Shown in pieces: positions 1,579-47,205 of a stretch of DNA of 64,000 bases. Both the position numbers and the translations under genes were made by a program. The DNA is taken from the IMG/VR virus record IMGVR_UViG_3300032456_000001; one strand, given 5' to 3'. A model generated the notes under the pieces. The model saw only the letters and a program-made list of their open reading frames with translations. It was not told where the DNA came from and did no database searches. How positions within the stretch are numbered: position 1 is the stretch's first letter; every line of letters starts with the position of its first letter. The DNA is from an uncultured virus (IMG/VR IMGVR_UViG_3300032456_000001) (taxonomy: Duplodnaviria > Heunggongvirae > Uroviricota > Caudoviricetes).

Positions 1579-1897
1579 GTTGTCGAGCGTAAGTAATCAA
1601 CGTTGGGCTATTTGGCAATGTAGATTTGACAGCGGTTTGTTCGCGGATAGCTTGCAACCAACCTTTGTCAATTTGAAGTTGATAACTAAGTTTCGGTATA
1701 AGCCAATCCCATTCACTAGCCCTAATATCTATTCGGGCGTTTTCTATTTTTGAATAGGTGATGTGGTCTATTTGATGTGTACGGTCTGAAAGCTCAACAG
1801 CTAACTCCCTTTGAGATAAACGTATTTTTCGCCGACCACCAAACAGCACTCTATCGAGAGTTATCAGTGATTGCATTTCATTATTGTCGTCAATCAT
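1568..1897 (-). CDS. XRE-family HTH regulator
   Basis: RRKIRLSQRELAVEL...TYSKIENARID. Confidence 0.7.
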   Translation of the reverse strand: MIDDNNEMQSLITLDRVLFGGRRKIRLSQRELAVELSDRTHQIDHITYSKIENARIDIRASEWDWLIPKLSYQLQIDKGWLQAIREQTAVKSTLPNSPTLITYARQLGD

Positions 1898-2345
1898 TTT
1901 TGTCGTCCTCTATTCTAATAAATTGGCTGCCGTAAAGCGGAACGTCTGATAAGCGTAATAGCACTTCTCCTGTTCCATGAACTTTAGGGTCTTTCGTGCT
2001 GTCATTAAAAGCCCAATGAAGAATAGGATTTTGGATATATCTATTTGAGTCATCTTGAAAAATCTTAGACTTCACAAGAACGTCTGAAATAACTTTTTCA
2101 CCTACAGACGAAAGATTTGAAGCATCTCTATTCAGAAACTTTTTACTACTACCAAATATCGTCCACTCCCATTCGGTATGTACTTTTAAAAACGGCTCAA
2201 TCCCAATGAGATTGTCAGAGACAATTTTCCTGTAAGGTTTTAAAAGTTTTTCTCGCGCCGCCCAGTGTGTCCGCATAAACGGATTTAACGAGATTGGCGG
2301 AAGAGGTAGTACGATTTCAATAATGCGGGGACTCAGTTGCTTCAT
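1890..2345 (-). CDS. RusA-like Holliday junction resolvase
   Basis: LPLPPISLN N-terminus, RDASN and DVLVKSKIFQDDS motifs. Confidence 0.65.
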   Translation of the reverse strand: MKQLSPRIIEIVLPLPPISLNPFMRTHWAAREKLLKPYRKIVSDNLIGIEPFLKVHTEWEWTIFGSSKKFLNRDASNLSSVGEKVISDVLVKSKIFQDDSNRYIQNPILHWAFNDSTKDPKVHGTGEVLLRLSDVPLYGSQFIRIEDDKND

Positions 2346-2821
2346 TTGATGTTAAAAATAGCGTGAGAGGCTAACTGGAACACTGGAATAGGCACAAGCA
2401 AACCAGAACTTTTGTAATCTTTATTTTTGCAATCTCTGCGCTGACAGGTTTTTGTCCATTCTTGTGCGGACATCTTAAGTTTGCCAAAATCAACGACAAA
2501 AGCTGTTTCACGCAAAACTAAATAATAAATCAACCAGTCAGCTTTGCTAGTGTACAACCAACCTCGGACATCTGGTCGCCCCTGTCTAATTACAGAATGA
2601 GTCTCAATGAATACGTTTCCCGTATCGTGAAAATCGGTCTTATATTCTATCAAACGTGGAAATGTTACTTCGCCACGTTTCGGAATATAAAACCTATCAA
2701 TACCTTTTTTTTGAAGCTCAAAAGGAACTTCCTTAATATCGTACCAGCGGGAGAAGAAAAAGTCTAACCTTTCTTCTCCGTCTAGTCCTAGCTGCTTTTG
2801 TTGTTGAAAATCATACATCAC
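2342..2821 (-). CDS. PD-(D/E)XK-like nuclease-fold phage protein
   Basis: QKKGID...IEYKTD...TGNVFIE...GWLYTSKADW. Confidence 0.55.
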   Translation of the reverse strand: MMYDFQQQKQLGLDGEERLDFFFSRWYDIKEVPFELQKKGIDRFYIPKRGEVTFPRLIEYKTDFHDTGNVFIETHSVIRQGRPDVRGWLYTSKADWLIYYLVLRETAFVVDFGKLKMSAQEWTKTCQRRDCKNKDYKSSGLLVPIPVFQLASHAIFNIK

Positions 2822-3067
2822 ACCCAGTCCTTGCCTACGCGGGTTGTGCCTGGTACAACAACATCAACTAGCTTGGGAATATAAAGGCGATGCTTTCTTA
2901 ATATTGCTTCGCTCTCACTGGATTTTCTTCTATCGGAACCGGGACTCGGAGGTTTTTCCGTGTCGCTTGATTCGTGTACAATTAAAGCAGAAGCCACCGG
3001 AAGTTCGACGTTGCATGATAGAAACATGATTGTTATTCCTTGCTAATCTGACAATAGCTTAGCATAG

Positions 3068-3409
3068 TTAAAACAGAGAAAGCTGGTTGGGGTTAAAGTC
3101 GGATTTTCTTCTTTCGTTGTACTCGTTTACTTTGCGGGGCTTTCTGTACGCCTGTCGCCACATCTGATAGTGTCTTACGGCAATACGAGTAGATAAAAAC
3201 TCCGAGACTAAACGAATTTCTTGACACCAAACCCTGTAAGGATGATTGACCCGCATTCCAAACGGATATTTGTTGGCGGATATCCATTGTTTACAGGTGT
3301 CAATATTGACGGATTCACCTAAGCACAACTGCTGCGCTTCGTATTCTAAAAGTCCGCTGGCAATAACATTGACCGAATGGTTTTGCCAGTCTGTTAACGG
3401 CTTATTCAT
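3068..3409 (-). CDS. Hypothetical phage protein with C-terminal QLSLF clamp-binding-like motif
   Basis: YPFGMRVNHPYRVW motif; ends QLSLF. Confidence 0.5.
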   Translation of the reverse strand: MNKPLTDWQNHSVNVIASGLLEYEAQQLCLGESVNIDTCKQWISANKYPFGMRVNHPYRVWCQEIRLVSEFLSTRIAVRHYQMWRQAYRKPRKVNEYNERRKSDFNPNQLSLF

Positions 3410-3678
3410 AGTAACTTCATTTTTTTATTGCTTACTCTTGCTCGTGGTCTGCTGCGTTCTACCATGCAACTTTCGGTGCGCCCTAAGCTTGCCGAGCGAT
3501 AGTCTTCACTGAGTACCAATTTTTGATACCGTTCCGCTAAATCTTGGGCTTTGTTTGGTGGATAGTCGCGATAGAATCTGTCAATTTGCTCTTGTACGGC
3601 GGCGGGTAGCGGTTGGTTTTCCATGTGTTTCACAAGTGAGCAACTAGGTAGAAAAACTACCTAGTTGTAAGATTAGAA

Positions 3679-4383
3679 CTAGAACTCAGACGCACTTGCA
3701 GGAAGTGCGTTAGCTGTTGCGGATGCTAAGCGTTGCTGCAACTGCAAGCTGTCTTGCGCGTTTCCACCTACTAATGCTGCTAACTCTTCAACGCTGAGGT
3801 TGTCTACGCACTGCATCATTCGCGTTCCCTGTAAATCGACTAATCGACTAGCGTTTATTGGGTCTGATAGAAGCGCCGCTGCTTGCTCAATAATCGCGTA
3901 TTGAACGTCGGAACGTTCGCTCCAAGTCCATTTTAGGGTGTAGTAATTGACTGGTTTGACTACTCCACTGTCATCTGGTTTTTGCCCAGATTGCTTGACA
4001 AACTCAGGGGTGAAAACACCCAAGGCTGGTTCGGTTCCTTTTGACTGAACCTCTGCGATAAGATTGTTGAAAGCGTCTAAGTTACGGTTCTTGAGGTAAG
4101 TTACCATTACCACACCTTGAGGGAGTTCGCCACTTTCTGCTATGAACCAAAGCTGACCCCATAATGTATTGCTAGTTTGACCAAGCGAACCAAAGAAGCG
4201 AGAGAACTTGAGAATTGTCATCGAACATTTTGAGCCGTAGTCCCTGTCTCCAATTGTCCATTGCCCTGACTGACAGTTGTTGCGAACATTCATTGCCGAA
4301 CTAGGCAGTAGTACAGCATCTTTGGGTTTTGCGCCGAATACCGAAAAGGCTGAAAATTTCGATTTGTTGTTAGGAGTAGTCAT
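3679..4383 (-). CDS. Hypothetical protein (possibly ssDNA-binding/recombination)
   Basis: 234-aa ORF in the leftward operon; function guessed from context only. Confidence 0.4.
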   Translation of the reverse strand: MTTPNNKSKFSAFSVFGAKPKDAVLLPSSAMNVRNNCQSGQWTIGDRDYGSKCSMTILKFSRFFGSLGQTSNTLWGQLWFIAESGELPQGVVMVTYLKNRNLDAFNNLIAEVQSKGTEPALGVFTPEFVKQSGQKPDDSGVVKPVNYYTLKWTWSERSDVQYAIIEQAAALLSDPINASRLVDLQGTRMMQCVDNLSVEELAALVGGNAQDSLQLQQRLASATANALPASASEF

Positions 4384-5219: not shown

Positions 5220-6359
5220 CTACTTAATGCTCTCGGCTTCTAATCTCGCTTGAGTGAATCCCACGTCAAAAAGATTGTGGCAAGCTTTTCTTGAGTCTTC
5301 CTTGAGGTACTTAGTAAAAGTTTCATAGATAGCAGGTTTGCTTGGTTCGTTACGGATGTAGCCTAGGTAGCCGTCTACCAGCGCCATAATGTACAGAGGT
5401 CTAAACTCTTTTGCGACCCCTTTAGGTAAGAGTTCTCTAGCCTCTGCAATCCAGTGGGACTCGTCTTTTTCTGCTCTCGAACTAGGAAGCTTTATGTTGT
5501 AGAAGGTAGCCAAAACGATAGCCTGTTCTTCCCTGATTGACTGTCCCCGAATGGCGAAACTCCGGTTTCGACCCGCTTCAATAGCATTCAACAAGCCTTG
5601 GAGTCTTTTCTCTAGCAACTTGACACTTGAAGCGTAATGTTCCTCGGTAATAACTTCTTCACAACTAACAACCGTTGTAGCCGAAATGTCAACACAAGTG
5701 TTCTCGACTTGTTGTTTGTTAGCTGTTAAATCGCCTGTTTGATTGGATGCGTTTTGAGTTGGTGTAGGCGGCTCTCTGTCTACATTGTTTTCATCGTCTT
5801 CGTCTTCTTCTTCATTCCACTCTATAATCTCACTAGCAACAGCGCTAGTGATGACCCGACCTTGCTCCGCTTGGACGATTACTTCTTCTTTGACTGCTGG
5901 TGAAGCTTTCAACAGCCGAATAGCGATTGACTGTGTGGCTCCGGCTTCGGCAAGAGATTCAATTTCTTGTTTCGTAAAACCTTGGCTGATTTTAATTTCG
6001 TTCTCTAACTTAGCCTTGCTGAAGCCCGTTTTCTCGGTTATCTTTTCCCAGAACTCTTTGTGGCTACCGTAAGCCTCTACAAAGTAATCGCGGGCTGTAG
6101 CCAGATTCAAACCCGACAAGTATAAGTGGATGAGTGTTTGCTTCACTCTCATGCCACGGTCGGCGGCAATGAGTTGTATATCTTCGTCTGTTCCAGTCAG
6201 CCTAACAAGCCTTCCGTCAGCTAAGATAATTGTGTCTTTCTCTATAGCGGAAAGCTGGCTCATTCCTAAATCCAAGGGTAAAGCTCCAAGAGCTAAGCTT
6301 CCCGACTCTGTAAGTGCCTGCGACGAGTAAACAAGTTCGTTTTGGTTCGTAGTTTCCAT
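5220..6359 (-). CDS. Hypothetical protein, DUF3102-like
   Basis: GLNLATARDYF...HKEFWEKITEKTGFSKAKLENEIKI pattern followed by an acidic linker. Confidence 0.45.
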   Translation of the reverse strand: METTNQNELVYSSQALTESGSLALGALPLDLGMSQLSAIEKDTIILADGRLVRLTGTDEDIQLIAADRGMRVKQTLIHLYLSGLNLATARDYFVEAYGSHKEFWEKITEKTGFSKAKLENEIKISQGFTKQEIESLAEAGATQSIAIRLLKASPAVKEEVIVQAEQGRVITSAVASEIIEWNEEEDEDDENNVDREPPTPTQNASNQTGDLTANKQQVENTCVDISATTVVSCEEVITEEHYASSVKLLEKRLQGLLNAIEAGRNRSFAIRGQSIREEQAIVLATFYNIKLPSSRAEKDESHWIAEARELLPKGVAKEFRPLYIMALVDGYLGYIRNEPSKPAIYETFTKYLKEDSRKACHNLFDVGFTQARLEAESIK

Positions 6360-38086: not shown

Positions 38087-38282
38087 TTACAATTATTCAA
38101 GTCTTTGCCTCATTGAATCCATATTAAAAAATCGGGATGCCTCTTCTCCAGCCACAGTTTGAGCATAGCCAGAGACAATCCATCTGGTTTAACATCGTGA
38201 AAACTACAATAGTTGACCCACTGGTCGTATAAATCAGGATATTCGACCTGCAACTTCGCTAACAATTCAGACATACTTAGTT

Positions 38283-38588
38283 TCAATCCTCACAATACCA
38301 CAAATAAGTGTTAACTCCTCTTCCTCTCAAGTATGAATCAATACTAAAATTTCTCCAATTACTGCCTAATGTCTCCCCCTCTACAGGGTCAACATCCCAG
38401 CCATTCTTGTTGCTCCACCACAGTTCTGCTTCTTGCCCTTCCCAGTCCAACATCCAGCGCTTGAGATGTTCAACATCAGAGAGCTGTTCTTTTACGCTAA
38501 CTCCAATAAAGCTCAACTCTCTTTTTATTATCTCTAGTTCTCTGATGTGTTTTTTGTCAGAACCGTGAAAAAGTACATCGGTATTCAT
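38283..38588 (-). CDS. Hypothetical protein, paralog of the 36500-37152 C-terminal domain
   Basis: Shared Trp-rich pattern. Confidence 0.5.
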   Translation of the reverse strand: MNTDVLFHGSDKKHIRELEIIKRELSFIGVSVKEQLSDVEHLKRWMLDWEGQEAELWWSNKNGWDVDPVEGETLGSNWRNFSIDSYLRGRGVNTYLWYCED

Positions 38589-39012: not shown

Positions 39013-39681
39013 CTAATCATCATTCCGTTCACCATAGTAGTCTTCATCAAAAATTGTCCTATCTTGCGCTCGTGCAATGTACGCCCGTCGTGCATCGTGT
39101 GCCAGTATCGCGTCCCGTGCTTTGTCTTCCTCTGTATCAACGCTCAATTCCCCAAAGTCTAGGACTAACGAATAAGTGCCTTCCACGGTCTTCTTTTTTG
39201 ACTTTTTGGGTGCATTCTTCTTGTCCTCAGCACGTTTTTCGGCTAGCAATTTCTTTTGTGCCTGTAACTGTGCTACTAATTCCGCTCTTTCTTGAGCTTC
39301 CCTTTCTTGTTTCTGTATCAACTTCCAATATTCACCGACTGAGGTTTTGCGAGTGCGTTCTATTGCTGGAGTATTGACAAAGCAGTCATCGCACCAAGCG
39401 TCAAGTTGTTTTGGCGGGATACTTTGATACAGCTTGGAGAAAACTCCACATTTGCTACACCGTTTAATTTGTACTTTGCTGACTAGCTGCAACTGCCAGT
39501 TAATTTCTTCGATATCTCCAGGTTGTGGTGAGTCGCTACTAGATAGTTGCAACTGCTGGTTAATCTCAATTTCGGATTGCGGTGAGTCGCTATTAGGGAG
39601 TAATTGCACGATATTATTGAAGGAAGTGGCAAATATCATCATTATAGACGATACTGTTAATCTTGTCAAGATATTCGACAC
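39013..39681 (-). CDS. Hypothetical protein with internal repeat and CxxC motifs
   Basis: SDSPQ..IEIN.QLQL twice; CSKC, CDDC. Confidence 0.45.
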   Translation of the reverse strand: MSNILTRLTVSSIMMIFATSFNNIVQLLPNSDSPQSEIEINQQLQLSSSDSPQPGDIEEINWQLQLVSKVQIKRCSKCGVFSKLYQSIPPKQLDAWCDDCFVNTPAIERTRKTSVGEYWKLIQKQEREAQERAELVAQLQAQKKLLAEKRAEDKKNAPKKSKKKTVEGTYSLVLDFGELSVDTEEDKARDAILAHDARRAYIARAQDRTIFDEDYYGERNDD

Positions 39682-39822
39682 TAGGCTTTGATTTCAAGGT
39701 TCAATTCCAATAGGTTTTAGTTTGATTGTGGTAAATTAGTACCGTAACTCATTACGAAACCAATGGTTTTAATCCTCTAGCTCTTCTAGTAACACCATCC
39801 GTAGTGTCAAAGGTTAAATCAA

Positions 39823-40416
39823 ATGGAATCCATACTGGTAAGTATCGAAAAGATTAGACCGTATCATGCTAACGCTAGACTGCACCCACCAGAACAGATA
39901 GAAAAAATCATTCGCTCTATCGGACTGACCGGATTTGACCAACCAATTGTCACAGACAAATCGTTCGTTATTGTTAAAGGACACGGGCGACTGCTAGCTG
40001 CACAAAAGATGGGGTTAACGAAAGTTCCAGTCATCATTTTGGACGTCTCCAAAGATGTTGCGGACAAAGCTCGACTTATTGACAACAAATCCAGTGAATC
40101 GAGTTACGACTTAGAAGTTTTACTGGCAGAAATTAACAGGTTTGAAGACGAGATATTTGACACCGGGTACAACCCCGACGAATTTAAGGAATTACTAAAT
40201 CAGCTAGAAGCAGATACGGCTATAGCTGACTACGACTGGAACAGCTTAGATGACGCGGAGAAAGAGGAAGACAATGAAGACAATGAAGAGGCAACAATCA
40301 CGTTAAAATTTGAAATCCCCGCGAACAAAAAAAGCCTTGTTTTAGGCTTTCTTGGCGTGAAGTCTACTAAACCCAATCTACTCGGCAATGCGTTGTCAAA
40401 ACTATGCGAAAACTAA
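39823..40416 (+). CDS. ParB/Srx-like protein of the DNA-modification module
   Basis: NARLHP, GFDQPIV, GHGRLLAA, LIDNK. Confidence 0.85.
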   Translation: MESILVSIEKIRPYHANARLHPPEQIEKIIRSIGLTGFDQPIVTDKSFVIVKGHGRLLAAQKMGLTKVPVIILDVSKDVADKARLIDNKSSESSYDLEVLLAEINRFEDEIFDTGYNPDEFKELLNQLEADTAIADYDWNSLDDAEKEEDNEDNEEATITLKFEIPANKKSLVLGFLGVKSTKPNLLGNALSKLCEN

Positions 40417-41018
40417 GAGTTCAAGAGATTATCCCTTTAACGGTACAGGGCGAAGGTTTCAACGCAGGTATGCCGTGCAGCTTTGTCCGACTGTTCGGCT
40501 GTCCTGTTGGTTGTTACTTCTGTGACACGGGTTACTCGGCAAACGAGAAGAAGCCGCCAGTTTACCATGAAATGACTACTGATGAAATCAAAACGGAATT
40601 GCTAAGCGATAATGTCGTTGTTACTGGTGGCGAGCCGTTTGTTAATTTAAATTTTGCGTACTTATTACTCGAACTGTTTGACAAGCGAGTTAGTATCGAA
40701 ACTTCTGGGATTAAATTCAGCGATACCTTGACAAATGAGTGGGTAACTCTATCTCCGAAAGAGCATTTAAACAAGGACGCACTAATTGACAGGCGACTTG
40801 CTCAAAGAGCGAATGAATTAAAATTAATAATATCGAAGGAGTCTGATTTTGACTACTATTCAAGCCTAGTTCAACACTTCAAAGAGCAAAGCAAGCCTGT
40901 CTATATTCAGCCTGAATGGGGTATCATGAGTCAGAGCCTTGAGATGTTGATAGGGCTAGCCAATGAAAACGAGGTCAAGCTGTCACTACAAACGCATAAA
41001 TTAATAGGAGTGAGATAA
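40404..41018 (+). CDS. queE: 7-carboxy-7-deazaguanine synthase
   Basis: TVQGEG, FVRLFGCPVGCYFCDT, TGGEP, IETSG, LSPK, SLQTHK. Confidence 0.93.
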   Translation: MRKLRVQEIIPLTVQGEGFNAGMPCSFVRLFGCPVGCYFCDTGYSANEKKPPVYHEMTTDEIKTELLSDNVVVTGGEPFVNLNFAYLLLELFDKRVSIETSGIKFSDTLTNEWVTLSPKEHLNKDALIDRRLAQRANELKLIISKESDFDYYSSLVQHFKEQSKPVYIQPEWGIMSQSLEMLIGLANENEVKLSLQTHKLIGVR

Positions 41019-41063
41019 TCAAAAAGTCGCTTAACAAGTTAAGTAATTACAGGATATAATAGA

Positions 41064-41468
41064 ATGCCTTGGACGATTAGCAAAACTTTCACTTTTGAAG
41101 CTGCACATCAACTGCCTTACCATGATGGGAAATGTCAGCGATTACACGGACATAGTTGGCAGTGTAGCCTCTACCTCGGCAGCAGTCAGTTAATCGAGAC
41201 AGGTAGTAAGCGCCAAATGGTCATGGACTATAGCGATGTCAAGGCTGCATTCAAACCAATACTTGACGACTATTTAGACCATCACTACCTCAATGACACT
41301 TTAGGGCTTGAGTCTCCAACCAGCGAAGCCATTTCTCGCTGGATATATGACCGCGTTAAACCCATTCTTCCCGATTTACTAGGAGTCAAGATTAATGAAA
41401 CCTGCACTTCAAGCTGTTACTACTCACCCGAACCAGAGTCAAGTCCTACTAGAAGCTTTGTTGATTAA
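41064..41468 (+). CDS. queD: 6-carboxytetrahydropterin synthase
   Basis: FEAAHQL, CQRLHGHSW, LDHHYLND, PTSE. Confidence 0.95.
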   Translation: MPWTISKTFTFEAAHQLPYHDGKCQRLHGHSWQCSLYLGSSQLIETGSKRQMVMDYSDVKAAFKPILDDYLDHHYLNDTLGLESPTSEAISRWIYDRVKPILPDLLGVKINETCTSSCYYSPEPESSPTRSFVD

Positions 41469-41961
41469 CTTCTGGAAGGGAAAGGTTGAGCCAGATACCG
41501 CGCGAAGAATCTTAGGATACTGGAAAGAATTCAACTCGAACGACAGTGACGTGGGAGACTTGTTCAAGTCGTTTGAGTGTGACAATGACCAGTTGGTAGT
41601 AGTCCGAGATATCAATTATCAAAGTATGTGTGAACATCACCTACTCCCTTTCTACGGAAAGGTACACATCGGTTACATCCCAACCGGTCGCGTACTGGGG
41701 CTTAGTAAGTTCGGGCGAATCGTAACCCACTTTGCGAAAAATCCACAGCTTCAAGAGCGACTTACTCAGCAAATTGGTACAGCCATTATGGATAACCTGT
41801 CTCCGCTAGGAGTTATCGTAGTGACGGAGGGTGTTCACACCTGCATGATTGCGCGAGGCATTCTGAAGCAAGATTCCAGCACTAGAACAAGCTTTATTTC
41901 CGGCGTATTTAAGAGCGATGCGAGTGCAAGACAGGAAGCTCTGAATTTGATTCTTCACTAA
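41395..41961 (+). CDS. folE: GTP cyclohydrolase I
   Basis: SMCEHHLLPFYG, GLSKFGR, QLQERLT, HTCMIARG. Confidence 0.95.
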   Translation: MKPALQAVTTHPNQSQVLLEALLINFWKGKVEPDTARRILGYWKEFNSNDSDVGDLFKSFECDNDQLVVVRDINYQSMCEHHLLPFYGKVHIGYIPTGRVLGLSKFGRIVTHFAKNPQLQERLTQQIGTAIMDNLSPLGVIVVTEGVHTCMIARGILKQDSSTRTSFISGVFKSDASARQEALNLILH

Positions 41962-41976
41962 ACAAGGAACTAAGTC

Positions 41977-42666
41977 ATGTCGAAGGCATTAATAGTATTA
42001 TCCGGTGGTCAAGATTCAACGACGTGCGCGGTCATCGCTAAACAGCAATTTGATGAAGTTTTTGCCGTCACGTTTAACTATGGACAAAAGCATTTAACCG
42101 AGGTGCAGTCGGCTATAAAAATAGCAGATTTCTTGTCGATTCCATTAGAAATTATCGACTTAGGTTCTTCCATCTTGAAAGGGAGTTCTCCGCTAATAAG
42201 TAGCAGCGCACTTGGGCTTTACGACAGTCCAGAAGAATTGCCATCGGGAGTAGAGCCGACTTTTATTAGCGGTCGTAATACCTTGTTCTTGACCGTAGCA
42301 GCTAATCGAGCTGATTGCTTGGGAATTACAGATATTTTTACGGGTGTATGCCAAGCAGACTTTGCGGGTTATTGGGATTGTAGGCAAGTCTTTATTGACA
42401 AGATACAAACCGCGTTGAATGAGGGTTTTTACGGAGAGGAAAAGTTTAAAATCCATACGCCGCTAATGGATTTAACCAAAGCAGAATCAGTACAACTCGC
42501 TCACGAAATATTAGGCGCGGAAAAGTTTAACGAGCTTTTCTCCCTAACTCATACCTGTTATGCCGGACAAAAAGGCGGCTGCGGAAAGTGCCACGCTTGC
42601 ATCTTACGGGATAAAGGGTTCACGGAGGCAGGGATTGCCGACCCTATCTGGCAGTTCAGAAAATAA
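41977..42666 (+). CDS. queC: 7-cyano-7-deazaguanine (preQ0) synthase
   Basis: LSGGQDSTTC, FNYGQKH, RNTLFL, YWDCR, TCY..CGKCHAC. Confidence 0.95.
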   Translation: MSKALIVLSGGQDSTTCAVIAKQQFDEVFAVTFNYGQKHLTEVQSAIKIADFLSIPLEIIDLGSSILKGSSPLISSSALGLYDSPEELPSGVEPTFISGRNTLFLTVAANRADCLGITDIFTGVCQADFAGYWDCRQVFIDKIQTALNEGFYGEEKFKIHTPLMDLTKAESVQLAHEILGAEKFNELFSLTHTCYAGQKGGCGKCHACILRDKGFTEAGIADPIWQFRK

Positions 42667-42685
42667 ATAGGAGTAGGTTGATAGT

Positions 42686-43882
42686 ATGTTGATTTACTTT
42701 GCGGGTGCAGTCTAGGGACAAACGCATCCATAAGGAAATTTATGGCTCTGGATTAGTTTTAAATCATTTATCGACCTATGCAGACTTGCCCGAAGTAACG
42801 GCAAAAATATCTTCAATGTTTCTACACTTGACGGACACAACTGCAAGAATACAAGGGAACTTAAGTTGCAAAGCTTAATGGGAGAACAAAGTTATGCAAA
42901 TTCTCTCTATAGCTTCGCCTATCCCAATCAAAGAGAACAATGGGAAGAGTATTATAGTATGTTGATTCATCTTGCCGATGCCACTCCAGAGAGAGGGCAG
43001 TATCAATCGTTGGTGGATGTGAAATTTCCCTGCCACTTAATGAGCTTCGCTTACCGGAATCAAGCTTTTGAAGGGTTTACAAAGACTTGGAATATGTTAA
43101 TTCATCTTGCTAGACATTCTGCTACTAAAGCCACAGAACAAGTGAAAATTAATCATCAATCTCACCTGACAACTTTTGCAGACAAGCAAGAGATATCGAA
43201 CTTGTTCGACACCTGCGTCAACGACAGATTACTACCAAGAATACTCATAGATTCTGGCGCTTTTACTGCTTACACGACGGGCAAAGTGATTACTGTAAAA
43301 GAGTATGGAACATGGGCGCTAGAGTTCAAGAAACAGTGGGAGTGCAAAGTAAAGAGTTTACGCTTCTTCAACTTGGATGTAATCGGTTCTCAAGAAAAGT
43401 CCGATATCAACCTACACAGATTAGAGCAAATGGGTTTAGAACCTATTCCAATCTTCACTTATGATGCGGATATCAAACACTTAATTTACTACTTAGAAAA
43501 CTACGAATATATAGGCTTTGGAGGGCTGGTAGGCAGAAGCCCCGCGGTCGTTATGAAATGGTTGGATTATTGTTACAAACAAGTCAATAATCACTACAAG
43601 AAAACAGGGACTTTAAGAAAGACCCACTTGCTAGGAATTACAAAACAACAAATACTAGAGCGTTATCCGTTATATAGCTGTGACAGTAGCGGATGGGTTG
43701 CCTGCTTGCGGTTTGGTCGTGGTAAAGCAATAGGAAAGTCAAAGATTCCAAGATATAACGAGTCACCAGAAGCGCTGAAGATTACGATAGTAACGCTAAG
43801 AGCCGAGATTGAGAAGTACAAGAAGTTGCAAGACGACGTTACGAAGTTATGGGCAAAGAGAGGGGTTGTGTGGGACGAGTAG
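42686..43882 (+). CDS. TGT-fold DpdA-like deazaguanine insertase with tandem N-terminal cassettes (continuous frame 42866-43882; first two cassettes frameshifted)
   Basis: ILIDSGAF, NLDVIG, PIPIF, IGFGGLV, HLLG, SCDSSGW; last gene of the preQ0 operon. Confidence 0.75.
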
Positions 43883-44076
43883 TTTCAATCCAAAACAAAA
43901 GAGCGAGATTGTTCCCACTCTTTTGCCCTACCAGATAATTATCCTGTTTGGGTTTCCCCGCATCTTTCGATTTTTCAGGATTGCTGTCTTACGACTAGCT
44001 TCAAGCTGCTTTCGCTACACTCGCTTTCTTGAGTCAAAGCTCACAGGTAATGGGGTGAAAGCTCCCTACCTTTATA
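43882..44076 (-). ncRNA. Putative tracr/omega-like guide scaffold RNA
   Basis: Minus-strand promoter TTTACA(44110-44105)-N17-TATCTT(44087-44082); several hairpins; internal CAATCCTGA anti-repeat; ends GGATTGAAAC, the last 10 nt of the CRISPR repeat. Confidence 0.6.
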
Positions 44077-44134
44077 TTGCTAAGATAACATGATATACTG
44101 AGCTTGTAAAGCCCTTCGCAAAAGATTTTCAATT

Positions 44135-45970
44135 ATGCTCACACTAGAATTTAAATGTTTTCCATCTCTCGAACAGAAAGAAAAAATAGAAAAGTGGTTG
44201 CAAATTTCTAAGTCTGTGTGGAATTGTGGATTGTCAGCCTTAGAAGATTTTGAAACAAATTATTACTACTACAAAGCTACAAACGGTTTAGACGGTAAAG
44301 AGAGTGGCGGGTACGCTCCATGCTGTCGATTACCTTGGAAGTATTGGAGTCACCTTGTAGATGAGGAAGGTGCAATCGTTTCAAAAGACAAGGGTAAGTC
44401 AATAATCCAAGCGCCCTACAGTGTCATTTACGATGATAAGTCTCATTGGTATATCCGAGAGTTGAAGCGGGTAAAGGTTCCGCAGCCAGCAGAGAAGAAA
44501 GAATCTTGGGGCTGGCAGAACTCAGAACATGGGTCGGTTACTGGTTACAGTTGCCCTTTGTCGGTTGACTTCACTGAAACGTTGATTTCTAAGCCTGGTT
44601 TGCAACAGGCGGGCGGGTTAGGTCAAGTCATCAAAGGGGACAACCTAACAGCACACCGCGAATTTATGACAGAAATGCCGTACAAGTTTCGCTCTGGGGC
44701 TCTTGCTGGATTAGATACTAGCTGGCAAGAGTACACAAAGTCAAGAGCCGGGGTTCAGAACGGTGCAAAGAAGGGGCGACCTCGGTTTAAACGCAGACGT
44801 GACAAGGTTGCAACCCTGGTTCACAACAACCCAAAAGGTGTCATCGTTCCCAAGGTAAACTCTCAATCTCTAATAGGTATACCAGGTCTTCGTGAATTGC
44901 GACTAAAAGGACTAGCACGTCGGTGGAAAAATCCAGACGGCACAATTCCAGAAATTGCCGCCTTCAAAATATGCCAATACGCTTCAGGCTTCTATGTTCA
45001 ATTAACGGGCGAGTTGGTTCGGGGGCGACGCATCAAACAAACAACTAAGTCGATAGGAATCGACCCTGGACTAGACAGCTTTATCAGTTTAAGCAACGGC
45101 AAGCAGTACGGAAATCCGCGTTACTACCGGAACGCTCAAATTAAATTAGCGGAGCTTCAGAAAGAACTAGCTAACAAAATGACTCACCGACTGATTCTCT
45201 GGTTAAATCATCCTGAACGGCGACACAAAGACATCAAAGCTCTTATTAATTGCTCACCTGACAAAGCCAAAAAACTTTGTGAAATCAAAAGTGAATCTGA
45301 AGGTGTTGCCCTAATCGGAGGGATGTACTGGCAAAAGTTAAAGTGGAACTGTCAAGCACCTTCAAGTGAACAGAAAAAGATTCAGAATCGGATTGGCAAA
45401 CTACACGAGAAGATTAAACGTCAACGCAAGGGATTCAACCAAAAGCTTAGCTCTGAGATTGTAACCAACTATCAATTTATTTCCTGTGAAAACGGGCTGC
45501 AATCACAAAATCTTCGAGCACAAGCTAAGCCACAAGAAGATACAGAGAAAGGTGGCTACAAGAAAAACCGGAAAGCTCAAAAAACTGGGTTAGCAAAGTC
45601 GTTATCTGACGCGGGACACGGCGATTTCATTGCACAACTAGAACAGAAATCTGCACGTGACGGACGTACTTTTTTGAGAAATCCGGCTGCCTACACTTCG
45701 CAAACTTGCCCAGTCTGCCTAAACAAGATGGCGTCAATGAGTGACCCTAAAATTAAATTGTATGAATGTACCTGCGGCTGGAAGTGTCACCGTGATATCA
45801 ATGCGGCGGTCAACGATGAACTAGCACTGTTCACAGGATTGGTAGCAACAAAGAAAGCGAAAAAATGGGGCGAATTAAGCCTTGAACTTCTACAGAAGGA
45901 AGTTTCAATTGGTTTGTCTAAGTGGGCGTTACAGGCAAAAACAAAAAGGATAGATTTATTATCCCGGTGA
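44135..45970 (+). CDS. Enlarged TnpB-like / compact type V (Cas12-like) RuvC effector, 611 aa
   Basis: TnpB-like N-terminus (LEFKCFPSLEQ...VWN), GRPRFK, RuvC-I GIDPG, RuvC-II ISCEN, Zn finger CPVC/CTCG, RuvC-III HRDINAAVN; CRISPR repeats begin 9 bp after the stop. Confidence 0.85.
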   Translation: MLTLEFKCFPSLEQKEKIEKWLQISKSVWNCGLSALEDFETNYYYYKATNGLDGKESGGYAPCCRLPWKYWSHLVDEEGAIVSKDKGKSIIQAPYSVIYDDKSHWYIRELKRVKVPQPAEKKESWGWQNSEHGSVTGYSCPLSVDFTETLISKPGLQQAGGLGQVIKGDNLTAHREFMTEMPYKFRSGALAGLDTSWQEYTKSRAGVQNGAKKGRPRFKRRRDKVATLVHNNPKGVIVPKVNSQSLIGIPGLRELRLKGLARRWKNPDGTIPEIAAFKICQYASGFYVQLTGELVRGRRIKQTTKSIGIDPGLDSFISLSNGKQYGNPRYYRNAQIKLAELQKELANKMTHRLILWLNHPERRHKDIKALINCSPDKAKKLCEIKSESEGVALIGGMYWQKLKWNCQAPSSEQKKIQNRIGKLHEKIKRQRKGFNQKLSSEIVTNYQFISCENGLQSQNLRAQAKPQEDTEKGGYKKNRKAQKTGLAKSLSDAGHGDFIAQLEQKSARDGRTFLRNPAAYTSQTCPVCLNKMASMSDPKIKLYECTCGWKCHRDINAAVNDELALFTGLVATKKAKKWGELSLELLQKEVSIGLSKWALQAKTKRIDLLSR

Positions 45971-46012
45971 AATCTTTCGTTTTAATTCCTAGTAGGGATT
46001 GGAGATTATTGC

Positions 46013-46837
46013 GTTTCAATCCCTAGTGGGGGTTTAGGTTGATTGCGACCTTTCTGTTGGTGTTAACAAAAAGGTAGTTAGAATGTTTCAATCCCTGATA
46101 GGGGTTTAGGTTGATTGCGACGTTAATGTCGAAGAAGGCCGCGACCGAGTTCGTTTCGTTTCAATCCCTGATAAGGGGTTTAGGTTGATTGCGACGATTG
46201 AGGGATGCTGAGGTATTGTTCGCGTTTTGTTTCAATCCCTGATAGGGGTTTAGGTTGATTGCGACCCGGCTTAGGGCCTGACTGGTCGCGTAAGTAACCG
46301 TTTCAATCCCTGATAGGGGTTTAGGTTGATTGCGACCGCAGAAAGCTAAGTCCACAGCAGCTTTACTCTTGCCGTTTCAATCCCTGATAGGGGTTTGGGT
46401 TGATTGCGACCCGACAGGTTTCCGCTCATCACCAAAAACTACTGTTTCAATCCCTGATAGGGGTTTAGGTTGATTGCGACGCTGGCAAGGTGAGGTAAGT
46501 GTTCTGAAACAGATGTTTCAATCCCTGATAGGGGTTTAGGTTGATTGCGACGCAAGGAAGTTAGCGAGAATTCGGCAGAGTTCGCAGTTTCAATCCCTGA
46601 TAGGGGTTTAGGTTGATTGTGACTTACCGGGCATTGGAGCATCGGAGAGCACGGAGAAGTTTCAATCCCTGATAGGGGTTTAGGTTGATTGCGACGGCAG
46701 AAAACTGGAATGGGTGAGTACAACTGGGAGGTTTCAATCCCTGATAGGGGTTTAGGTTGATTGCGACGCAATCCGGGATATGCAGCCAAGAAAAATATCA
46801 GTTTCAATCCCTAGTAGGAATTTAGCTTGATTGCGAC
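46013..46837 (-). CRISPR. CRISPR array: 12 repeats (37 bp, GTCGCAATCAACCTAAACCCCTATCAGGGATTGAAAC on minus strand), 11 spacers of 33-37 bp, plus a degenerate repeat at 45979-46013
   Basis: Repeat starts on + at 46013, 46085, 46158, 46229, 46300, 46374, 46444, 46515, 46587, 46659, 46731, 46801; all spacers differ. Confidence 0.98.
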
Positions 46838-46993
46838 CGCCGACGTGTGAAATCGTTGGTGTATCTAGTTTTCAAGGTTGCGTTGCGTCAAACCGACTCC
46901 CGCAATTGCAAAAGTGTTATGGAAAGATTGAATATTATTTAGTTTTCGTGGTTCGGTTAAGTCCATTGTAATCGAAGATGCGAATCCTGTCAA
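46838..46993 (-). promoter_or_regulatory. CRISPR leader and promoter
   Basis: Minus strand TTGACA(46993-46988)-N17-TACAAT(46970-46965); leader contains ACCTTGAAAAC, as recalled from cyanobacterial leaders. Confidence 0.75.
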
Positions 46994-47007
46994 CCCAATT
47001 TTCTAAT

Positions 47008-47107
47008 AAAAAAACCCGCTTTCGCAGGCTTGAGATGAAAACCACTTCAAATGAAAACACACTAAAACCGCTACTCACTGCACGCAATTGCCGTAAACGT
47101 ATCGATT
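47008..47107 (-). ncRNA. Putative ~100-nt trans-acting sRNA
   Basis: TTGACG(47142-47137)-N17-TATTAT(47119-47114) promoter, GAAA-loop terminator with U run, no ORF, central segment complementary to early-gene leaders. Confidence 0.6.
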
Positions 47108-47147
47108 GATTTAATAATAGCAGGTTAATAAGAATACGTCAAGTATC

Positions 47148-47175
47148 AAAAAAACCCGGTGTGACTGCCGGGTTG
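47148..47175 (-). terminator. Intrinsic terminator after the BRO gene
   Basis: aacccggcagtcacaccgggttttttt on minus strand. Confidence 0.7.
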
Positions 47176-47205
47176 GTGGGTAAGATTTGAGCGTATTAAT
47201 TGCAT

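Follow-up and report, generated by a model that had tools for sequence, protein, structure and literature searches.

The stretch of DNA analysed here, called the window throughout, is the 64,000-nucleotide (nt) IMG/VR record IMGVR_UViG_3300032456_000001, from an uncultured virus of the Caudoviricetes. It is cyanophage-like, with many small open reading frames (ORFs), a Bro-N protein and replication proteins. It carries a Cas12-like effector gene followed by a CRISPR (clustered regularly interspaced short palindromic repeat) array and preceded, on the opposite strand, by a candidate non-coding RNA (ncRNA) that an earlier note on this DNA had pointed out and that is predicted here to be a trans-activating CRISPR RNA (tracrRNA). 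The features concerned are listed below, with repeat positions numbered back from the repeat 3′-end.

44135..45970, plus strand: Cas12-like effector gene, type V-U2 (C2c8), 611 amino acids (aa), from domain and profile matches
44071..44099, plus strand: promoter-like site of the effector gene, TTTATA-17-TATACT with TG, interleaved with the ncRNA promoter-like site, from a consensus scan
44082..44110, minus strand: promoter-like site of the ncRNA, TTTACA-17-TATCTT with TG, -35 at 44105-44110 and -10 at 44082-44087, from a consensus scan
43893..44073, minus strand: predicted tracrRNA, ~181 nt to the U-run, with a 5′-hairpin, internal stems, anti-repeat and terminator-like hairpin
44045..44071, minus strand: 5′-hairpin P1, with loop bases 44056-44060 complementary to repeat positions -6 to -2
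43941..43981, minus strand: stem P4 (43976-43981 with 43941-43946), enclosing two small GAAA-loop hairpins
43926..43940, minus strand: predicted anti-repeat for repeat positions ~-19 to -5, 15 base pairs (bp) including G.U pairs and one bulge, from duplex energy against background and from covariation
43893..43928, minus strand: 16-bp hairpin followed by a U-run, with G.U pairs that form on the minus strand only
43882..43891, minus strand: 10-nt copy of the repeat 3′-end (a truncated repeat, 'R10', below called the tag), directly after the U-run and overlapping the stop of the upstream ORF
45979..46012, minus strand: degenerate repeat without a spacer, abutting the last (trailer-end) repeat
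46013..46837, minus strand: CRISPR array of 11 spacers and 12 repeats, 37 nt long except for one of 38 nt, from repeat detection, leader and promoter-like site
46838..46993, minus strand: array leader (46838 to ~46957) and promoter-like site (46965-46993)

The effector gene and its array

The effector ORF contains Cas12f1-like TNB and OrfB_IS605 domains (Pfam) and matches the NCBIfam model V_cas_c2c8 (NF038192) with 394.7 bits (cutoff 350, expectation value (E) 6.7e-118). The array stands next to the gene, as in type V-U2, beginning 43 nt past the effector stop codon, and the protein is, as judged from these matches, a member of the type V-U2 (C2c8) family. There are 35 database relatives, 26 of them full-length family members. 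Across an alignment of 24 homologues D310 and E452 are invariant and D554 is present in at least 90%, and from their positions in the TnpB/Cas12 fold these residues presumably form the RuvC catalytic triad. By profile, the nearest relative with a solved structure is Cas12p (9jfs, E 9.2e-40). Membership of the Cas12p (type V-P) family was considered and ruled out, as the sole stretch with significant pairwise similarity is the RuvC region, residues 382-538 (E 1.9e-15). No gene of the Cas1, Cas2 or Cas4 families is present among the 11 neighbouring ORFs scanned, positions 42800-47000 have no DNA match in the phage collection, and the window has no Rfam match and no recognizable transfer RNA (tRNA) or transfer-messenger RNA. 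Few extra loci could be recruited for comparison because the effector family is present in only 2 of the 401 cyanobacterial genomes searched.

Just after a terminator-like site on the minus strand, a promoter-like site of that strand (TTGACA-17-TACAAT, 46993-46965) matches the consensus at 11 of 12 positions, and scanning of 45900-47200 revealed no promoter-like site on the plus strand. Within the ~80 nt that precede the first minus-sense repeat there is a sequence block shared with the leaders of two homologous loci, L005 and L009, in which its distance to the first repeat is the same and the arrays run in the direction of the effector gene. Spacers common to sister phages are located at the array end distant from the leader. 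Given the promoter-like site, the leader block and the position of the shared spacers, the array is, on this sequence evidence, read on the minus strand and so convergent with the effector gene, the direction the earlier note had assumed, and the repeat part of a CRISPR RNA (crRNA) would then end in the 10-mer that recurs as the tag. When compared with phages, the array matched only other arrays, and as none of 122 spacers from 8 arrays has a protospacer in any sequence compared, a protospacer adjacent motif (PAM) is not derivable. Repeats also occur as spacer-less doublets, 34 nt from start to start, in which a repeat lacking 3 nt abuts the next repeat; one is present in the window (45979-46049) and three in the sister locus L003 (5842/5876, 6125/6159 and 6300/6334).

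Folding, conservation and pairing of the divergent RNA

The promoter-like site assigned to the ncRNA implies a transcript start at ~44073-44075, and there is also a minus-strand promoter-like site at the equivalent place in L005. Such sites, which are consensus matches only, number 3 in the 601 nt scanned, compared with 1.0 +/- 1.1 in shuffled sequence. The minus strand of 43882-44074 folds with an energy of -56.7 kcal/mol (2 of 200 shuffles do as well; z -3.0) versus -44.6 kcal/mol for the plus strand (z -1.2, 26 of 200). Between the hairpins at its two ends, the minus-strand fold has two to three internal stems, one of them conserved with an internal loop, and a single-stranded stretch at 43926-43940. 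A plus-strand model match on the terminal hairpin contains four non-standard pairs, and the hairpin with its U-run would be expected to function as an intrinsic terminator. All of the features listed in the earlier note are present in the sequence where it placed them, including the minus-strand promoter said to overlap the effector site, the 16-bp hairpin, which is specific to the minus strand, and a 7-mer near the 5′-end (44056-44062), located in the hairpin loop, that was proposed to pair with the repeat end. The complement of the 5′-hairpin is itself terminator-like on the plus strand, at 44051-44068 in the window and at 3885-3901 in L005, in both cases before the effector promoter, and may insulate the effector gene from upstream transcription.

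Homologous loci were available at effector identities of 98% (L003 and L007), 43% (L008), 34% (L005), 32% (L004 and L006) and 31% (L009); effector homologues at 66-86% identity (P0002-P0006) fall outside this comparison of locus DNA. A first covariance model, built from the window and L003 and run with filters off, matched L008 (43.9 bits, E 1.9e-12) and L005 (20.4 bits, E 3.4e-5), in each case directly upstream of the effector gene and on the opposite strand. With a second model, the best match of the locus was likewise upstream of the gene and on the opposite strand in L009 (E 5.7e-4), L006 (E 0.011) and L004 (E 0.069), and the window returned the single expected site (E 1.7e-39). The check by covariance model that the earlier note had suggested thus located the RNA in five homologous loci, and by these matches its upstream, divergent position is conserved in the clade.

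In the four-row alignment obtained with the first model, 97.3% of the cells are paired and 22 of 53 pairs are changed on both sides, a count reached by none of 500 shuffles and compared with 3-6 pairs in slid controls, although the pair counts lean towards structure, the alignment having been made to fit the structure and containing no more than three independent lineages. Such double-sided changes affect four of the six pairs of helix 6 (stem P4) and 9 of the 16 pairs of helix 9 (the 16-bp hairpin), and 23 of 182 paired cells are G.U or U.G, which would be mismatches on the opposite strand. A full-length MAFFT alignment of six RNAs was too poor for use. The distant relatives L001 and L020-L023 gave no convincing covariance-model match. 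L020-L023, which are GC-rich and ~27% identical, have matching inverted sequences up- and downstream of the gene, and look like a different, possibly transposon-like sub-family. In L010, a weak model match (995-1104, E 0.16) is positioned between the gene end and the array on the strand opposite the gene, and the placement of the RNA within the effector family may be variable. L006, a chromosomal homologue, has a 22-repeat array (1859-3440) upstream of the gene, which is on the strand of the predicted tracrRNA (3631-3759) and ~190 nt after it.

Nowhere else along the window RNA is pairing with the repeat tail as good as in the stretch 43926-43940, which adjoins the terminal hairpin on its 5′-side. 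Background windows that pair as well or better number 16 of 4412 in the window, 19 of 3432 in L003, 0 of 2402 in L005, 28 of 3018 in L009 and 25 of 3354 in L004, placing the anti-repeat in the top 1% in every locus, five in total, for which the array is known. The L005 match forms a 15-bp duplex, and the -31.7 kcal/mol obtained across the whole upstream region is reached by none of 200 shuffles. Where the anti-repeat departs from perfect complementarity, the substitutions are transitions, and the duplex of minus-strand RNA and crRNA has G.U pairs at those points. Over 192 positions, the RNAs of the window and L003 have three differences: the hairpin loop accounts for two, and the third, in the anti-repeat, is G in the window and A in L003. 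As all 19 repeats in L003 have the matching change, a C-G pair becomes a U-A pair; G001, another sister phage, has window-type repeats together with a window-type anti-repeat. At the 5′-end, the base facing repeat position -1 changes with the repeat: it is C in L004, L005 and L008, with G as the last base of the repeats (or, in L008, of the tag), and G in L009 and L006, with repeats ending in C. A different anti-repeat, the internal 9-mer at 43975-43983, was also evaluated and rejected, as it pairs with the repeat tail at -10.1 kcal/mol, 398 of 4412 background windows are as good, and it is the 5′-arm of stem P4.

Several observations weigh against a tracrRNA. With default filters, the first covariance model finds no homologue; three of the five homologue matches are weak (E 5.7e-4 to 0.069), with unrelated matches scoring similarly; and the pair counts have the lean already described. 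The anti-repeat duplex in the window is weak (-15.6 kcal/mol, with many G.U pairs), an energy-only scan of 43000-45978 for anti-repeats singles out no site, and the window lineage is the exception at repeat position -1, where there is a C.C mismatch. An equivalent promoter-like site was not called in L008 or L009, all such calls being consensus matches, and a simple terminator scan calls the hairpin in none of the four loci scanned. The conservation of the tag in L008, described below, is also hard to explain if the tag is never transcribed.

Weighing both sides, we consider it highly likely on the comparative evidence that this RNA is a tracrRNA and, as an explanation of the whole locus, probable that the minus strand of 43893-44073 is the tracrRNA of a phage-borne type V-U2 (C2c8) Cas12 system. 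The basis is sequence, conservation of structure, complementarity and covariation, from which we infer transcription, RNA ends, effector binding and activity. The tracrRNA part of the proposal in the earlier note, a divergent minus-strand ncRNA upstream of the effector gene serving the array, gains support from covariation and anti-repeat matching, with its 5′-motif, hairpin and position upheld; the internal 9-mer that it took for the anti-repeat has to be replaced by 43926-43940. In the mechanism envisaged, the tracrRNA would be transcribed divergently from the effector gene, the two promoters being interleaved, and the hairpin and U-run would end most transcripts near 43893. Minus-strand transcription of the array, starting at a promoter and leader of its own, would give crRNAs in which the repeat 3′-end is followed by the spacer. 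The anti-repeat would pair with crRNA repeat positions ~-19 to -5, and the 5′-hairpin loop (44056-44060) with positions -6 to -2, forming a pseudoknot as in the solved Cas12p complex. At the edge of the CRISPR cassette, the tag would be a truncated repeat and form the stub of what had been a one-spacer mini-array before a 4.1-kilobase (kb) insertion of dpd genes split it.

The truncated repeat and the edge of the cassette

The last 10 nt of the minus-strand region, 43882-43891, equal the repeat end in the crRNA sense, as the earlier note had observed, and base 43882 is the G of the TAG stop of the ORF at 42866-43882. The exact 10-mer has 14 copies in the window, 12 within the array and two others at 38280 and 43882. 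With one mismatch allowed there are 8 sites outside the array versus 5.7 expected and, because the count alone is weak, the argument rests on conserved position in relatives. A repeat end of 9-10 nt follows the hairpin in the window, L002, L003, G001 and L008; in L008 the hairpin sequence has diverged and an 11-nt repeat end is located 8 nt after the U-run, with 9 of the 10 tag bases kept at the same place. A rough calculation puts the probability that a 9-mer matches by chance within ~20 positions at about 1e-4. The tag occupies this position in sister phages too, and in a homologue with 43% protein identity, and its presence at 43882-43891 by chance therefore appears unlikely. In G001 the last base is T instead of C; there is no tag in L004 or L005, and only a poor match in L009. 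The third exact 10-mer (38280-38289) has the same orientation and overlaps the stop of a 101-aa minus-strand ORF (38283-38588).

Two further features are located on the other side of the tag:

39823..43882, plus strand: six-gene 7-deazaguanine (dpd/que) cluster, between two truncated repeat ends
39699..39775, minus strand: relic mini-array, made up of a truncated repeat end (39766-39775, one mismatch), a 30-nt spacer (39736-39765) and a degenerate full repeat (39699-39735)

The cluster encodes ParB-like, QueE-like, QueD, FolE, QueC and DpdA-like transglycosylase proteins, is bracketed by the tag copies at 39766 and 43882, and its last stop codon overlaps the latter. It is present only in the window and L002; four sister contigs (L003, G001, L031 and L032) are without it. 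Homology between the window and L003 starts at 43881-43882, and between the window and G001 at 43883. Relatives found through a neighbouring 222-aa gene (G001 being L026/L033) document five states of the site. It is empty in L032 (2466-2500), which is without window positions 39677-47008, and holds an array only in L031 (2307-2448); G001 has an array, the 5′-part of the effector gene and the tracrRNA, L003 has the full cassette, and the window has the full cassette plus dpd. Since homology starts there, tags bracket the cluster and the relatives have these five states, the tag is, on this comparison, the mark of a recombination-prone cassette edge. At this locus, sister phages have gained and lost two units, the CRISPR cassette and the DNA-modification cluster, at junctions that resemble repeats. 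A target search with the relic mini-array gave only chance-level matches.

The 10-mer could then be only a scar, left by array decay or repeat recombination at the cassette boundary and without RNA function, which would leave the tracrRNA reading unaffected. The start of homology to L003 and G001 exactly at 43881-43883, the tags that bracket the dpd cluster with a degenerate full repeat nearby, the five site states, and the full array that follows the tracrRNA on the same strand in L006 are all consistent with this. A neutral scar would not, however, be expected to keep 9 of 10 bases in place in L008, and the conservation of the tag suggests some function. We therefore regard a functionless scar as plausible, although on balance doubtful.

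A function for the tag is provided by the next alternative, in which read-through RNA ends in the 10-nt tag and flank and is an omega-RNA-like single guide and a tracrRNA for the array at once. The repeat end follows the hairpin not only in the window, L002, L003 and G001 but also in the diverged L008; the Cas12p structure, in the part of its description drawn on here, shows only 10 nt of repeat and 17 nt of guide (bioRxiv 10.1101/2025.01.20.633832); truncated repeat-spacer units are described as used by Cas12k (bioRxiv 10.1101/2021.02.06.429022); and a fusion of tracrRNA and half-repeat is proposed, in the text consulted, for RpoE-linked TnpB (PMC10691335). In L008, of the 16 nt that immediately succeed the tag, 15 agree with a site located 230 nt downstream, within the 5′-part of the following minus-strand ORF; the local score is 16, whereas 300 shuffles reach no more than 15. 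This match may reflect a self-directed regulatory guide or a local duplication. The matching sites in L008 are at 1977-2012 and 1757-1781 (minus strand), and the next gene is a 434-aa ORF without a Pfam family. A supposed degenerate repeat 33 nt after the L008 tag was rejected, as it does not align with the repeat family and its resemblance is in hairpin-plus-tail shape only.

Against such a guide, the tag is positioned beyond the stem and U-run, is missing or poorly matched in the three other loci named above, and has an altered last base in G001. The flank that would serve as guide is antisense to the DpdA-like gene in the window. In L003 (3716-3757) and G001 (L026 2251-2275) it consists of five and three copies, respectively, of a hexamer derived from the repeat end, followed by the promoter of the next minus-strand gene, and is unrelated to that of the window. 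That the guide differs wholly between relatives that are 98% identical results from the insertion, in this phage, of the 4.1-kb gene cluster at that point. Neither the window guide nor the L003 guide has a second target (184 and 112 of 200 shuffles, respectively, score as well), and the window spacers and the two candidate guides have no target within the window or the compared loci. Homing on the empty site of L032 is unsupported, as L032 has no copy of the hexamer repeats that make up the initial 7-19 nt of the guides in L003 and G001. We consider a read-through single guide unlikely, and give much the same low weight to its broader form, a clade-wide tracrRNA gene fused across a leaky terminator to the 10-nt tag, with read-through producing a fixed-guide single-guide RNA beside the normal array. 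In the preferred reading, a tracrRNA that ends at the hairpin, the tag is probably not part of the main mature RNA.

Two remaining alternatives dispense with the divergent tracrRNA. In the first, there is no RNA gene, and the region is the promoter and 5′-region of the effector gene together with a bidirectional terminator of the upstream gene. The hairpin does immediately follow the stop of the DpdA-like ORF, and both the window and L005 have the plus-strand terminator-like sequence described above, the complement of the 5′-hairpin, but L003, G001 and L008 retain the whole structure without a plus-strand gene ending there, and covariation, anti-repeat matching and the asymmetry of the G.U pairs point to a minus-strand RNA, making this very improbable. 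Least probable of all is a plus-strand scaffold RNA located, like those of TnpB and Cas12n, inside the 3′-end of the effector ORF, together with plus-strand reading of the array. Two sequences on the gene's strand would fit it, a solitary motif resembling a repeat end downstream of the gene in L019 and a half repeat inside the ORF in L009, but the plus strand of 45730-45978 has no fold signal (z +0.89, 164 of 200 shuffles as good), the strong promoter-like site that precedes the leader is on the minus strand, where the shared leader block also lies, and the plus strand of that region is without one. The L019 motif (700-709, in the cyanobacterial genome G184) is single, lies just downstream of the gene for a 564-aa relative and has the classical omega-RNA layout; the covariance model found no upstream RNA in L019. 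The L009 sequence (5868-5895) is the 3′-half, at least 19 nt, of that locus's own repeat, within the 3′-part of the effector ORF.

Comparison with known systems

Type V-U2 (C2c8) is a catalogued but functionally uncharacterised Cas12 subtype. One review table lists no tracrRNA for it, and our literature searches on V-U2 and C2c8 turned up no paper with a description of one. A defined tracrRNA specifies what reconstitution of such compact phage nucleases needs, namely strand, ends, anti-repeat, pseudoknot partner and array direction. Within the subtype, the closest parallel is the V-U2 locus of cyanophage vB_AphaS-CL131, which is described in the consulted part of PMC6293099 as having a TnpB-like effector and an array without adaptation genes. 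That text reports no tracrRNA and leaves the array direction open. The CL131 effector has 466 aa and is 29.5% identical over 82% of the query, and the best match that the second covariance model gave in its locus (E 0.65) is unconvincing and unrelated in position.

In architecture of the RNA, the locus most resembles Cas12p ('Cas12 hacker', type V-P), a phage-borne miniature Cas12 which, in the portion of the preprint drawn on (bioRxiv 10.1101/2025.01.20.633832), has a ~180-nt tracrRNA (given as 185 nt) and repeats that, as in the window, end in AAAC. There, the last repeat bases form a pseudoknot with a motif near the tracrRNA 5′-end (the R:AR-1 duplex), with nt 7-10 of the tracrRNA pairing with the last four nt of the repeat, and the ordered part of the repeat in the complex is confined to its last 10 nt; the tag in the window is likewise 10 nt. 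The differences are that the proteins are distantly related, with similarity in RuvC only and the window effector filed by NCBIfam as C2c8, and that the same portion of the preprint gives neither location nor strand for the Cas12p tracrRNA gene and describes no repeat stub after it.

Partial repeats outside an array are known from Tn7-CRISPR-Cas12k systems (bioRxiv 10.1101/2021.02.06.429022, in the parts consulted), in which the repeat end that pairs with the tracrRNA is retained, over ~13 nt compared with 10 nt in the window, and whose cyanobacterial 37-nt repeats have a related 3′-end and a related leader motif. The Cas12k unit, however, follows the array, and has a 17-nt spacer that matches a tRNA attachment site next to a GTN PAM, whereas in the window it is the tracrRNA that the stub follows, and the search for a target of the window guide found none. 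The window effector also keeps the RuvC triad, and there are no Tn7 genes among the ORFs scanned. If a fixed guide were made from such a stub, it might regulate a neighbouring gene, as hinted at by the L008 match, or act against sibling phages without the cassette.

The stub also invites comparison with TnpB. Transposon ends and TnpA were not found at the window locus, and identity as a classical TnpB omega-RNA was rejected on position, as the window RNA is upstream and antisense and the 3′-end of the effector ORF is without a fold signal. An omega-RNA, as described in the sources drawn on, overlaps the 3′-end of tnpB on the strand of the gene. What would be shared, both with omega-RNAs and with the 'RNA splitting' described for TranC in the available text of bioRxiv 10.64898/2026.03.27.714800, is a scaffold RNA with a 3′-end equal to the repeat end and guides that follow; in the window the tag abuts flank-derived sequence and is positioned after a terminator-like hairpin. 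In RpoE-linked TnpB systems, according to the sections of PMC10691335 consulted, a half repeat near the tracrRNA, on the same strand, keeps the repeat 3′-end, and the scenario offered is that the array was lost, the nuclease inactivated, and an omega-RNA re-created by fusion of tracrRNA and half-repeat. In contrast, the window has an array, of 12 repeats, and a nuclease that appears intact, and its tracrRNA and stub are set apart by a terminator-like hairpin. If the stub is functional, it would bear on the interconversion of omega-RNAs and tracrRNA/crRNA pairs, and if a leaky terminator does generate a single guide, the locus would stand, as a living intermediate, midway from such a pair to an omega-RNA.

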